DNA of 64,000 bases, taken from NCBI RefSeq assembly GCF_003334815.1, contig NZ_QOWO01000020.1. One strand, 5' to 3'. The stretch comes from Escherichia coli. GTDB lineage: Bacteria; Pseudomonadota; Gammaproteobacteria; Enterobacterales; Enterobacteriaceae. Each line of letters opens with the position of its first letter. The stretch's first letter is position 1. The translations under genes and the position numbers were made by a program. This document shows, one piece after another, positions 51,616-57,829 of the stretch. Below the pieces are notes generated by a model that was not told the DNA's origin, did not search any database, and was given only the letters and a program-made list of their open reading frames with translations.

Positions 51616-52377
<762 letters not shown>

Positions 52378-52480: not shown

Positions 52481-52587
52481 GCCTGATGCGCTTCGCTTAT
52501 CAGGCCTACGTGTTTCCTGCAATATATTGAATTTGCACAGTTTTGTAGGCCGGATAAGGCGTTCACGCCGCATCCGGCATAAACAAA
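52481..52587. repeat. REP - IHF-motif - REP element (RIP/BIME) between chbG and katE
   Basis: GCCTGATGCGCTTCGCTTATCAGGCCTAC, then CCTGCAATATATTGAATTTGCACAG core, then GTAGGCCGGATAAGGCGTTCACGCCGCATCCGGC. Confidence 0.8.
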
Positions 52588-52634: not shown

Positions 52635-54896
52635 TCAGGCAGGAATTTTGTCAATCTTAGGAATGCGTGACCACACGCGGTGTGCTGCCATCAGCGTTAG
52701 CAGTTCATCCATAAAACTACCGTCAGCGCTGTCAGCTTCCACAATCCCTTCTTCACCCTGGTCAGCGACCTTGATTGTTGCTTTAAACTTGCGCGCGTCA
52801 CCCGCCAGCGCAATCGGTTTAAGGTGTTTGTAGGCTTCCATCAGGTAGTAGTTGGCATCGCCGTTGTCAGCGATATCCGCGATATTGCCGCAAGGGACAA
52901 TGACCGCATCGACCGTCAGCGAAGGTGCACCGGCAAAGGTAGCGGCTATAGGCAACACCGTACCGTCATCCGCAGTCACTTCACCCATTCGGGAGTAGAG
53001 CAGTTTGGCATGAACGCCTTTGGCCTTCAGCGCCTTGAGAATGGCCAGAAGGTCTGCCGATCTCACTTCATCATTAAGTAAAATCGCTACCACGCGACCT
53101 TTCACATCACCGTCAGGAATGGCGTACAAACTTAAGGATGGATCCTTTTTCAGACCGTTGACGTCCGGAGGTGGGGTGATATTCAGCTGGTCGTCAGTCA
53201 GTTCGATACCGAGATTTTTCGCCACCGCCTGGGCCAGAGTGAGATCAATATGCGCCAGCTGGTCAACAACGCGCTCACGAATATACGGACGAACGACTTT
53301 GCTTAACTCAAAACTGAAACCATCGACAATATGGCGCTGCTCAAATGGCGTCTGACTTAGCCAGAACAGACGCGGATGGGAATAATATTCGCCAAACGAT
53401 GGGCTGCGCTCGCGAACTTTATTGCCTTCCACGCGCTCCTGGTATGATTCAAAACCGCCGCGTTTCGGCCCCGGCGGTGTTTCGCGCGGCCAGTTATCGT
53501 TAATCGAGTTCGGTTCGTAATTCGCCGGGTTAGTGTCGATCCCCATGCGATGCATGCCGTCACGCTGGAAATTATGGTAAGGGCAGGTCGGACGGTTAAT
53601 CGGAATCTCATGGAAATTCGGCCCACCAAGACGACTGATTTGTGTATCGGTATAGGAGAACAAACGTCCCTGCAACAGCGGATCGTTGGTGAAGTCCAGT
53701 CCCGGCACGATATGCCCAGGATGGAAAGCCGCCTGTTCGTTTTCAGCAAAGAAGTTATCCGGGTTGCGATTGAGCACCATTTTGCCGACACGCTGAACGG
53801 GCACCAGTTCTTCCGGGATAAGTTTGGTTGGATCGAGAAGATCGAAGTCGAACTTGAATTCATCTTCTTCAGGAATCAACTGGAAGCCCAGTTCGTATTC
53901 CGGAAAATCGCCTGCTTCAATGGCTTCCCACAACTCGCGGCGGTGGAAGTCCGGGTCACGTCCGGTGAGTTTTTGTGCTTCATCCCAAACGAGTGAGGCT
54001 TTACCTGCCAGTGGTTTCCAGTGGAAACGTACAAACGTTGCCTTCCCTTCGGCATTAATCAGGCGGAAGGTGTGAATACCGAAGCCTTCCATGGTGCGGT
54101 AACTGCGGGGGATGCCGCGATCCGACATCGCCCACATCACGTTGTGCAGAGTTTCAGGTTGCAGAGAAACATAATCCCAGAAAGTATCGTGGGCACTTTG
54201 CCCTTGTGGAATTGCCCAGTGCGGTTCTGGTTTTACCGCATGAACAAAATCGGGGAATTTATGCGCATCCTGGATAAAGAAGATTGGCGTGTTATTGCCA
54301 ACGAGGTCAAAAATACCCTCTTCGGTATAGAACTTGGTGGCAAAGCCACGGATATCACGCACGGTATCAGCAGAGCCAGCACCACCCTGAACGGTAGAGA
54401 AACGTACAAATACTGGGGTGATTTTGTTCGGATCTGAGAGGAAATCCGCTTTGGTAATATCGCTTAAGCTTTTATATGGCTGGAAATAACCGTGAGCGGC
54501 TGATCCGCGTGCATGAACAATACGTTCCGGAATGCGCTCATGGTCAAAGTGGGTGATTTTCTCGCGCAGAATAAAATCTTCCAGCAGCGTTGGACCACGG
54601 CTACCGGCACGCAGTGAGTTTTGATCGTCGGCGATGCGCACGCCCTGATTAGTGGTCAGCGCATAATTTTCACTGCCTTTGCGTACGTCTTCCAGAGAAT
54701 TAAGTTTTTCGTTACGCGTATCAGGGGCTTTCAGGCTCCCTGGGGCGGTAGGTTGTGCACCTGGCGGTGTTGGTTCAGCCGCTGGACGATGAGAGCCGTC
54801 CTCAGGTGCCAGTGAGTCCATCCCCGGTTTCGCTTCGCTGGAATCGTGTAGTGGTGACTGGTGCTGATGTGGGTTCTTTTCGTTATGTTGCGACAT
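52635..54896 (-). CDS. katE: catalase HPII (753 aa)
   Basis: ORF track. Large-subunit catalase sequence. Confidence 0.97.
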
Positions 54897-55099
54897 TGAA
54901 CTCGTCTCCTTAATTTATTACTGAAAGGGCCGCTGTTTTGGTCAAAAAACTCTCTAACTATAGACCACCAGCCAGATCCCGCTTCGGAGACTATTCTGGA
55001 AACGGTGTTATGAAATACACGCAAAGCGGGACGTACAGGGGCTAAATCGGCTAAACTACAGTTTTTCTGATTTTTAATATGCGTTTAGTGAAGCCAGTA

Positions 55100-55342
55100 A
55101 TGAAGAAACCGCTCCGCCAGCAAAACCGCCAGATTATTAGCTATGTCCCACGCACGGAACCCGCGCCGCCAGAACATGCGATAAAGATGGATTCGTTTCG
55201 TGATGTCTGGATGCTGCGTGGCAAATATGTTGCGTTTGTACTGATGGGAGAGTCATTTCTGCGCTCACCGGCGTTTACTGTGCCTGAATCTGCCCAACGT
55301 TGGGCAAATCAGATCCGCCAGGAAGGGGAAGTGACTGAGTAA
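55100..55342 (+). CDS. cedA: cell division modulator CedA (80 aa)
   Basis: ORF track 55079..55342 trimmed to the internal ATG at 55100 (MKKPLRQQNRQ...). The longer 87-aa form from 55079 is possible. Confidence 0.82.
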   Translation: MKKPLRQQNRQIISYVPRTEPAPPEHAIKMDSFRDVWMLRGKYVAFVLMGESFLRSPAFTVPESAQRWANQIRQEGEVTE

Positions 55343-55630
55343 GGATTACATACCTCCCGGTTTTGCCGGGAGTTACATGACCTGAAATTCTGTATTTCGT
55401 TGCTACATTCATTCAAACCACCTGTAACAAAAAGCTGCCTTTGACGATCTATTGCTATAAATAAGTGATCTTTTTTCTTTAATTGTTTATTTATTTTAAA
55501 ATGGTTAAGTTTTGCTAATCATGATGAGCTATTTTTGATAGTTCATCCTGTGGCGTCGCTCTTAAACTTATATTGTAAATGACTTAGATTTAAATGAGAT
55601 AATAATTTTGTTAACAATATGAGGCGGGAG

Positions 55631-56434
55631 ATGTTTTCTACAAACTTAATACAGAGTAATTATGGTGATTTAAATATTAAAAGCCTGGCTTTCGACTCTT
55701 TTAAAGAAAGGCTGCAGTCTACTATGACAGCACTCACTTTCTTTATATCAACGGGTCAATGTGACTGCGATGAAATAGCAGAATCAAACTTTAATTATAT
55801 GATTGCCTATATGTCTAACATTAACTATGATGCCTCAAAGCCAGGAGCGCCAGCACTTAGTTTTGATACATATCTGCAGGACAATGTTAAATATAGAGTA
55901 ATAATTAATAATCTTTATGGTAGTGAAATTCGGATAAGAGGTATAAATAAAGATTTTATTGGAATGGATGTCACTTCTGTATTTCGCCCAGAAAAAATGA
56001 CCAATTTGATCAGTATAAAAAACAGGTTGGTTATTCACTATTTAAGGACTATATACTATGAACAAAATTATATACATCCTGTCGGGAGCATTTTTGCTGC
56101 GATTCAAAAAAATGAGAGTCTCCTAAAGTTTCCTTCGATAATATCAATGCTTAATATCAATCTTCTTTTTAATCCACTAAATCTTCCGGGAATGGGAAGT
56201 GGTGTGCTTGAAGATATTATGAGTATTCCAGATAGTTCACTTAGAAAACGTCTCGGGTATGAGGTTTTAAGCTTCTCGCTACAGGCACATTCATTGAGCC
56301 AGGAATGTATTGATAAGTTGGACATTTTTTTCGCTGACGATCTGTTTAAATATGAGTCAGTATGCATCGCCGCGATGGAACATTTAAAAAGTAAGGCAAC
56401 GGCCCCTATACAAAACGGACCGTTGCCAGCATAA
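55631..56434 (+). CDS. ydjO: uncharacterized protein YdjO (267 aa)
   Basis: ORF track 55619..56434 trimmed to ATG 55631 (MFSTNLIQSNYG...). Very AT-rich gene with an AT-rich upstream region. Confidence 0.82.
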   Translation: MFSTNLIQSNYGDLNIKSLAFDSFKERLQSTMTALTFFISTGQCDCDEIAESNFNYMIAYMSNINYDASKPGAPALSFDTYLQDNVKYRVIINNLYGSEIRIRGINKDFIGMDVTSVFRPEKMTNLISIKNRLVIHYLRTIYYEQNYIHPVGSIFAAIQKNESLLKFPSIISMLNINLLFNPLNLPGMGSGVLEDIMSIPDSSLRKRLGYEVLSFSLQAHSLSQECIDKLDIFFADDLFKYESVCIAAMEHLKSKATAPIQNGPLPA

Positions 56435-56437
56435 GAA

Positions 56438-57829
56438 TTAATGGTGTGCCAGTTCGGCGTCGTCTTCGCTATCCAGAATGGCTTTATCGGTTTGCTTCAG
56501 CCACTGGCTGGTCAGCGTGCCAGCTGTCATCGAGCCACTAACGTTTAACGCCGTACGGCCCATGTCGATAAGCGGTTCAACGGAGATTAACAGCGCCACC
56601 AGGGTTACTGGCAGGCCCATCGCAGGCAGTACAATCAGTGCGGCGAAAGTTGCACCACCACCGACACCGGCAACGCCTGCGGAACTAACGGTAACAATAC
56701 CGACCAGCGTCGCAATCCACATCGGGTCCAGCGGGTTAATGCCAACCGTAGGCGCAACCATCACCGCCAGCATTGCCGGATACAAACCGGCGCAGCCGTT
56801 CTGACCAATGGTTGCACCGAAAGAGGCGGCGAAACTGGCGATGGATTCAGGAACGCTCAGACGACGCGTTTGTGCTTCCACATTCAGTGGGATAGACGCA
56901 GCACTGGAACGGCTGGTAAAGGCAAACGTCAGCACAGGCCATACCTTACGGAAGTACTTCAGCGGACTCACGCCATTAATGCCCAGCAGAATGCCATGCA
57001 CTGCAAACATAATCAGCAGACCGAGGTAGGACGCGACAACGAAACTTCCCAGTTTGATGATGTCTTGCAAGTTAGAACCTGCAACCACTTTGGTCATTAG
57101 AGCCAGAACGCCGTAAGGGGTCAACTGCATGACCAGGCGAACCAGTTTCATCACCCAGCTTTGTAGGGTATCGATAGCGGCTAAGACGCGTTCACCTTTC
57201 GGCGCATCATCCTTCAGCAGTTTCAATGCAGCTACGCCGAGGAATGCGGCAAAAATTACCACGCTGATAATTGACGTCGGATTGGCTCCGGTAAGATCGG
57301 CAAACGGGTTTTTCGGGATAAAGGACAAGACCAGCTGCGGAACGCTCAGATCAGAGACTTTACCAACATAGTTACTTTCAATGGCGTTCAGACGTGCAGT
57401 TTCTGCACCACCCTGAACCAGACCTTCAGCCGTCAAACCAAACAGGTTGGTGACCAGCACACCGACCAGCGCCGCAATCAGCGTGGTAAACAAAAGCGTA
57501 CCGATGGTCAGAAAACTGATTTTGCCTAACTGAGATGCGTTATGCAGACGGGCAACCGCGCTCAGAATAGAGGCGAAGACTAACGGCATAACGATCATTT
57601 GCAGCAGTTGAACATAGCCGTTACCAACGATGTTAAACCACTGTACAGAATCTTTAAGTACCTGGCTGTCAGAACCATAAATGGTATGCAGGGCAAGGCC
57701 AAAAACCACACCCATCACCAGACCCACCAGCACTTTTTTCGCCAGACTCCACTGTTTATGGCGGGTCTGAGCCAGCGCAAACAGCAGTACAACGAACACC
57801 ACGATGTTCGCAATTAATGGAAAGTTCAT
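56438..57829 (-). CDS. tcyP: L-cystine transporter, dicarboxylate/amino acid:cation symporter family (463 aa)
   Basis: ORF track. Multi-pass membrane protein. Formerly ydjN. Confidence 0.93.

Follow-up and report, generated by a model that had tools for sequence, protein, structure and literature searches.

The E. coli gene ydjO is most probably an acquired, AT-rich accessory insertion that is found only in Escherichia, evolves fast under weak selection, is dispensable and is xenogeneic-like in character. We studied it in a stretch of 64,000 nucleotides of an E. coli contig (NZ_QOWO01000020.1, assembly GCF_003334815.1; hereafter the window), in which the region 55343–56434 is 100% identical to the K-12 MG1655 records. 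The essentials have already been published piecemeal, namely the prediction of a foreign origin, H-NS binding and the promoter island; what we add is the exact make-up of the insertion, the empty site as the ancestral state, the absence of the gene from a fifth of E. coli, an orthologue in E. albertii, a deletion remnant, and weak purifying selection alongside frequent loss. We regard ydjO not as a discovery but as a tidy illustration of a xenogeneic islet made up of one gene, and its behaviour is unsurprising for an H-NS-sheltered accessory gene.

According to our model, about 1.1 kb of AT-rich DNA would have entered an Escherichia lineage at the junction of cedA and tcyP, which are convergent, displacing the short terminator spacer that the two genes shared together with the final cedA codons, and bringing hairpins of its own for both neighbours. 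With a leader and body that the literature describes as H-NS-bound, and a leader that it describes as RNA polymerase-bound, the insert would behave as xenogeneic DNA, probably expressed at a low level and conditionally, and encoding a predicted soluble protein whose family appears confined to Escherichia.

Base composition and codon usage of the ydjO locus

The local gene order is katE (52635–54896, minus strand), cedA (55079–55342, plus strand), a 288-bp spacer, ydjO (55631–56434, plus strand) and tcyP (56438–57829, minus strand; older name ydjN), with three bases between the ydjO stop codon and tcyP. The initial annotation placed ydjO alone between cedA and tcyP with no partner gene, which this order confirms: there is no partner ORF, and no second credible ORF was found in the leader (55343–55630). 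The conserved start codon of ydjO lies at 55631; a longer ORF of 271 aa can be read from 55619, but stop codons close this extension in a divergent allele. Rfam gave zero matches within 55343–56434. The features of the region are as follows:

55322–55342, plus strand: variant cedA 3' end (left breakpoint), encoding a CedA that ends here in ...QEGEVTE
55343–55630, plus strand: AT-rich leader of 288 bp, GC 0.326, a published "promoter island" and H-NS-binding spacer
55354–55372, plus strand: GC-rich hairpin directly 3' of the cedA stop codon, -17.9 kcal/mol, z -4.0, with 0 of 200 shuffles folding equally well
55442–55453, plus strand: left copy of a direct repeat (repeat family D5), TGACGATCT[A/G]TT
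55524–55543, no strand assigned: 20-nt block ATGAGCTATTTTTGATAGTT, conserved without change in E. coli alleles and E. albertii
55579–55606, plus strand: sigma-70 promoter-like site ATGACT-16-AATAAT found by scan, 25 nt upstream of the start codon
55631–56434, plus strand: ydjO coding sequence, 267 aa, predicted soluble, without a hydrophobic segment
56106–56112, plus strand: A7 homopolymer; the A8 frameshift allele cuts the protein at about residue 161
56325–56331, plus strand: T7 homopolymer, shortened to T6 in a frameshift allele typical of O157:H7
56335–56346, plus strand: right copy of the direct repeat, TGACGATCTGTT, partner of 55442–55453
56385–56427, minus strand: tcyP intrinsic terminator, hairpin 56395–56427 followed by a U-rich tail, -22.4 kcal/mol, z -4.45, 0 of 200 shuffles

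GC content is 0.344 over the 1092 bp of 55343–56434, compared to 0.498 for the whole window, making this the GC minimum of the 64 kb at that window size (z = -3.7); nowhere else does a 1092-bp window drop under 0.40. The low value holds for the leader and for ydjO itself (0.351; GC3 0.313), against 0.515 for cedA, 0.521 for katE and 0.524 for tcyP, so that the earlier estimate by eye, of a strongly AT-rich gene and leader at roughly one third GC against about half for the neighbours, was accurate; the long A/T runs that it mentioned could be counted as 17 A/T-only runs of at least 8 nt.

Codon usage was compared among 48 non-overlapping ORFs of at least 150 aa in the window, of which ydjO is the extreme for GC (z -3.8), for GC3 (z -3.8), for a CAI-like index that takes the window's own genes as its reference (0.583 versus a mean of 0.718, z -3.2), and for the rare codons AGA, AGG, ATA, CTA and CGA (8.1% versus 1.6%, z +5). 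Windowed GC and codon adaptation both place ydjO far beyond the local range.

An empty site in relatives and the ends of the insertion

Mapping the neighbouring genes onto cedA loci from 54 species representatives showed that cedA and tcyP are convergent and lie only 50–110 bp apart in most representatives of Citrobacter, Salmonella, Enterobacter, Kluyvera, Leclercia and Atlantibacter, where the spacer at the empty site holds a terminator-like hairpin. A few non-Escherichia representatives have a spacer of 143–911 bp between the two genes, with normal GC and no ydjO. Among the Escherichia representatives returned by the scan, which did not include E. fergusonii, E. marmotae or E. ruysiae, E. 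whittamii and three others also have an empty site, with cedA and tcyP 51–53 bp apart. Within E. coli, an empty site with a 46-bp spacer occurs in 1124 of 5426 complete genomes (21%), and ydjO was found at a query coverage of at least 80% in 4240, a patchy rather than universal distribution. The presence of the empty junction in most other Enterobacteriaceae, in several Escherichia and in 21% of E. coli indicates that the ydjO DNA is an insertion. E. coli strains with the empty site include LF82, 83972, NC101, APEC O18, IMT5155, ZH063 and JCM 5491, which we take to belong to phylogroup B2, a label that covers only these recognised strains among the 1124 genomes.

The C-terminus of CedA delimits the insertion further. 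It reads QEGEV[TA]E in K-12, Escherichia sp. MOD1-EC7003 and E. albertii, and QENE[VIL]xE in B2 E. coli, E. whittamii, other Escherichia, Citrobacter and Salmonella, that is, at all empty sites and in the outgroups, the derived cedA 3' end being common to all ydjO-bearing lineages. The left limit of the insert lies within the final seven cedA codons, and its right limit is the tcyP stop codon.

A test for the mobility signatures of a genomic island was negative at ydjO, with no integrase, transposase, tRNA target or island-end direct repeats found at the locus; the sole repeat that brackets the gene is internal (copies at 55442 and 56335). The case for horizontal acquisition rests on the empty site and on composition. 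With an intact empty site in relatives and outgroups, together with outlying composition and codon usage, the earlier suggestion of a horizontally acquired islet is largely right; neither normal GC and codon usage nor universal presence, the two findings that had been named as speaking against it, was observed.

We set aside the apparent empty site of E. coli HH97 (NZ_CP116409.1, L001 4001–4171), a 171-bp C-rich low-complexity spacer that looks like an assembly or polishing artefact, and used clean empty sites in its place. This spacer is unlike any other empty site and adjoins katE and IS110 genes annotated as broken, and a 664-bp query across it was mostly matched in four genomes only.

Signals in the leader and reported protein binding

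The GC-rich hairpin that follows cedA occupies the position of the ancestral terminator hairpin shared by cedA and tcyP and, having no downstream U-run, may nevertheless serve as the terminator for cedA. At the other end of the insert, the tcyP terminator, which was also picked up by our scan as a terminator-like site, overlaps the final ydjO codons.

Within the leader, the block ATGAGCTATTTTTGATAGTT is identical in K-12, two further E. coli alleles and E. albertii, while the rest of the leader is about 50% identical. Located about 35 nt before the -35 hexamer and imperfectly palindromic (TGAGCTAT-N5-ATAGTTCA), the block is a candidate regulator site; we know of no regulator consensus that fits it. 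The promoter reported for ydjO by genomic SELEX with the RpoD holoenzyme, ATGACT-16-AATAAT, is identical to our promoter-like site at 55579–55606 (PMC3946193).

The same SELEX study marks an H-NS site (HNS mark) in the ydjO-cedA spacer that holds this promoter (PMC3946193). The spacer is also one of 78 "promoter islands" (island 1811053_320, Table 1, PMC3661553); that table gives it as H-NS-bound, with a K in the H column, from the ChIP-chip data of Kahramanoglou and Oshima, and ties it to genes that Nakamura 2004 and Lawrence and Ochman 1998 had predicted to be foreign (PMC3661553). The H-NS binding that the initial annotation had suspected is accordingly on record from both ChIP-chip (PMC3661553) and genomic SELEX (PMC3946193). 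The reported binding of H-NS and RNA polymerase suggests that ydjO expression is probably low and conditional. A search of the literature found no direct test of ydjO derepression in hns mutants, and the locus tag b1730 led to unrelated papers only. Both ydjO and ydjN appear in a list of serum-upregulated genes of an ExPEC strain (PMC4145685).

Compared to the H-NS-bound, acquired AT-rich genes and promoter islands of K-12 (Panyukov and Ozoline 2013), ydjO is alike in its GC of about 34% in a genome of 50% GC, in a leader with reported H-NS and RNA polymerase binding, and in the intact empty site of relatives; it differs in being a single gene without integrase, tRNA or repeats. A further difference is that our scan gave no excess of promoter-like sites over composition-matched shuffles (5 versus 4.9 expected).

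A divergent orthologue in E. albertii and the age of the two states

A tblastn search of the fetched loci revealed a 39%-identical fragment just 3' of cedA in E. albertii, and a profile search recovered the full-length E. albertii YdjO (P0067, 257 aa, a cluster of 125 sequences), which lies between cedA and tcyP on its contigs and is hence syntenic. The description of ydjO as an orphan consequently holds at the level of the genus and fails at the level of the species. The K-12 and E. albertii proteins share 34% identity (dN 0.67, dS about 1.8, dN/dS about 0.37), against 93–97% for five flanking genes (dN 0.014–0.030, dS 0.56–0.74, dN/dS 0.02–0.05), so that ydjO exceeds its neighbours 20- to 50-fold in dN. 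In E. albertii the gene is as AT-rich as in E. coli (GC 0.342). A frame that is open and under selection at 34% identity, beside genes at 93–97%, makes ydjO a good test case for the evolution of H-NS-sheltered genes.

The E. albertii loci (L070, L071) have no katE between the ydjC-family gene and cedA, unlike E. coli and most relatives, and a 50-aa ORF is called in the gap upstream of cedA.

In Escherichia sp. MOD1-EC7003 (L007), only the last 32 ydjO codons are left. The deletion junction lies at the direct repeat TGACGATCT[A/G]TT, whose copies start at 55442 and 56335 in the window, and the gene thus appears to have been lost by recombination between the two copies; the remnant keeps the tcyP terminator.

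The gene is old within the genus Escherichia. Ancestral-type empty sites occur in lineages between E. albertii and E. coli, and a single gain followed by simple deletions therefore does not fit; the distribution requires either that homologous recombination later replaced alleles or that presence and absence have long coexisted as a polymorphism. A more far-reaching reading joins three proposals: that the two states form an old cross-species polymorphism, with E. albertii and most E. coli carrying ydjO while B2 and several sister species keep the empty site; that YdjO founds a new conflict family, fast-evolving and genus-restricted, acting in phage defence, competition or host interaction; and that the 20-nt block is an H-NS-relief switch. 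We consider this combination unlikely as a whole.

The YdjO protein

YdjO has no match in Pfam, NCBIfam, PADLOC, PHROGs or PDB sequences, profile searches included. The earlier statement that it holds no recognisable catalytic motif was borne out by these searches, and no enzymatic motif was seen. No ydjO relative was found in phages by tblastn or in a scan of IMG/VR, and a plasmid donor was rejected, the only tblastn plasmid matches being three mislabelled chromosomes; none of the phage, plasmid and IMG/VR searches yielded a donor of the ydjO DNA. Neither a DNA-level nor a close protein match occurs outside E. coli/Shigella, and across all searches run the relatives are limited to E. coli/Shigella and E. 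albertii; neither 5.8 billion clusters nor 1.84 billion representatives yielded a homologue from beyond Escherichia. These results mean that none is detectable with the searches used rather than that none exists, given that phmmer over the 1.84 billion representatives missed the 34%-identical E. albertii orthologue, which was recovered as P0067 by a word-indexed profile search of the larger library.

The sole distant match in the 1.84-billion search, P0034 (26% identity, E = 1.5e-36), was rejected as an artefact, an A/G-swapped E. coli locus. Compared to positions 55000–57100 of the window, the Logan contig SRR33321306_56313 (L006), from a public read-set assembly, shows A replaced by G in 587 columns and G by A in 447, while C and T are unaffected; such purine-swapped read sets can plant false distant homologues in large protein libraries.

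Several proposed kinships were also discarded. Paralogy with YahL, YjfZ/DUF2686 and YhiS, AT-rich orphans of E. coli that are similar in size, an idea that arose from a published grouping (PMC11057252) and a weak Foldseek match to YhiS, found no support in BLASTP (E at least 0.2) or hhalign (probability below 1%). A GspI-like minor pseudopilin of type II secretion, which would call for a hydrophobic N-terminal helix with a prepilin cleavage motif and for a pilin fold, was rejected; the maximum hydropathy of YdjO over 19 residues is 1.14, with no hydrophobic segment, and the protein contains no tryptophan. A toxin-antitoxin system or known anti-phage defence system was likewise rejected, with no partner ORF and no PADLOC match.

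AlphaFold gave a poor model from the single sequence (pLDDT 36) and, from six sequences including that of E. albertii, a model with a mean pLDDT of 55 and a C-terminal half below 50. The N-terminal domain, about residues 18–140, was modelled at pLDDT 70–82 as two helices, five antiparallel strands and one helix, and in the model of the N-terminal half a pair of helices lies against an antiparallel sheet of five strands. Structure searches gave no convincing fold match, and remote homology searches and structure prediction together pointed to no relative beyond Escherichia. We would tentatively assign YdjO a conditionally useful role, in a niche or in conflict, rather than a housekeeping one; its function, if found, would define a new protein family.

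Selection and loss of function

Among intact E. coli alleles, dN/dS is 0.13–0.27 for ydjO versus 0.01–0.07 for tcyP, while the ratio of ydjO dS to tcyP dS runs from about 0.5 to 6 and is above 1 in nine of ten allele pairs. The alleles are deeply divergent mosaics; a rare one (P0006, 76% identity, none in the complete-genome set) has its divergence confined to the N-terminal two thirds. Judged from these substitution patterns, ydjO appears to be a genuine protein-coding gene under weak purifying selection.

Loss-of-function alleles are nonetheless frequent, the two commonest being one-base length changes in the A7 and T7 tracts. Exact matches to an 80-mer of the A8 haplotype were found in 645 complete genomes and to a 78-mer of the T6 haplotype in 305, so that at least 950 of the 4240 ydjO-bearing genomes (at least 22%) carry a frameshift, counts in which long-read homopolymer error is a possible source of artefact, although the lineage consistency of the alleles runs counter to this. 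In O111 and related strains, the A7-to-A8 frameshift occurs together with a stop codon at R119. ydjO is annotated as a pseudogene in three of six sampled genomes, many YdjO protein clusters are truncated, and IS1 insertions in the gene were seen in two sampled genomes (H1, H21); the literature adds a heat-evolved derivative of K-12 with IS10 in the gene, and an IS interruption in O104:H4. The recurrence of homopolymer frameshifts, a nonsense mutation and IS insertions, along with the absence from B2-type E. coli and the deletion in one sister species, shows that ydjO is dispensable.

Each of the A7 and T7 frameshifts sits on its own haplotype and lineage (O111-type and O157:H7, respectively), which looks like fixed loss rather than phase switching, and there are hints that both tracts are slippage-prone. 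In one genome (H94), 81 nt aligned to the 80-nt A8 query, that is, one extra base, possibly A9.

These losses lend some weight to the view that ydjO is a decaying, non-functional ORF on junk AT-rich DNA, kept only since H-NS renders the DNA harmless, as do the worst codon fit in the window, the lack of homologues and the weak structure model. We nevertheless judge this improbable: the dN/dS among intact alleles is low, the frame of 244 to 267 codons has stayed open at 35% GC although the E. coli and E. albertii proteins differ at 66% of amino-acid positions, pN is 0.44 versus a pS of 0.68 in the same comparison, and the intact allele is still in the majority.

No better placed is the proposal that ydjO is a gene of conflict, for instance a stand-alone factor against phages or in competition, with an arms race behind its fast evolution and patchiness. 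The elevated dN relative to the neighbours, the deep mosaic divergence of alleles with dS mostly above that of tcyP, and the lineage-specific pattern of presence, absence and loss of function would all suit such a gene; against them stand a dN/dS well below 1 in all comparisons, the lack of a partner gene, of defence genes nearby and of any PADLOC or PHROGs match, and a protein without a recognisable enzymatic motif.

It is less probable again that the ORF was born de novo within an inserted AT-rich non-coding fragment, with no donor gene ever involved. A de novo origin would account for the total absence of homologues outside Escherichia in the cluster and representative libraries and of phage or plasmid relatives, and it sits well with the low-confidence C-terminal fold and the very fast protein evolution. 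However, homology can become undetectable through fast divergence alone, six sequences were enough to model the N-terminal 120 residues as a compact alpha+beta domain, and the ancestral spacer was only about 50 bp, so the DNA itself would have come from elsewhere.

Lastly, an ydjO ancestral to Enterobacteriaceae or to Escherichia, with the empty sites as deletions, has almost no probability left and is effectively refuted for Enterobacteriaceae, for although deletion does occur (MOD1-EC7003) and E. albertii has the gene, every non-Escherichia representative sampled is without it, most outgroups share the short hairpin spacer and the QENE..E CedA end with the empty Escherichia sites, a deletion would be unable to rebuild that spacer and cedA end, and the composition is alien. 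The acquired accessory insertion is accordingly the reading that we retain.

ydjO as a marker, and other elements of the window

YahL, YdjO and YjfZ have been described as "conserved signature proteins" of E. coli/Shigella, and ydjO has been proposed as a qPCR marker specific to E. coli/Shigella for water testing (PMC11057252). Our data agree in that YdjO, one of these three markers, has no close match outside E. coli/Shigella, but the gene is neither universal, with 1124 of 5426 complete genomes lacking it and at least 950 frameshifted, nor strictly species-specific. The marker is hence missing from about one fifth of complete E. coli genomes, including recognised, clinically important B2 strains. 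This absence fits the lower detection rate of 93% reported for ydjO (PMC11057252).

Elsewhere in the window, positions 63817–64000 hold the outside end of an IS10 (CTGATGAATCCCCTAATGATTTT...) that runs off the window end, and an Rfam match to RNA-OUT at 63862–63931 (97 bits) lies within it. To our knowledge, the reference strain MG1655 has no IS10, so the window probably stems from an IS10- or Tn10-bearing derivative of K-12. Rfam also matched the sRNA family ES036 (CssrF) twice on the minus strand, at 52502–52544 (55.5 bits), in the spacer between the ORF at 51628–52377 and katE, and at 45356–45398 (42.9 bits); these two 43-nt copies may be repetitive extragenic sequence rather than sRNA genes.
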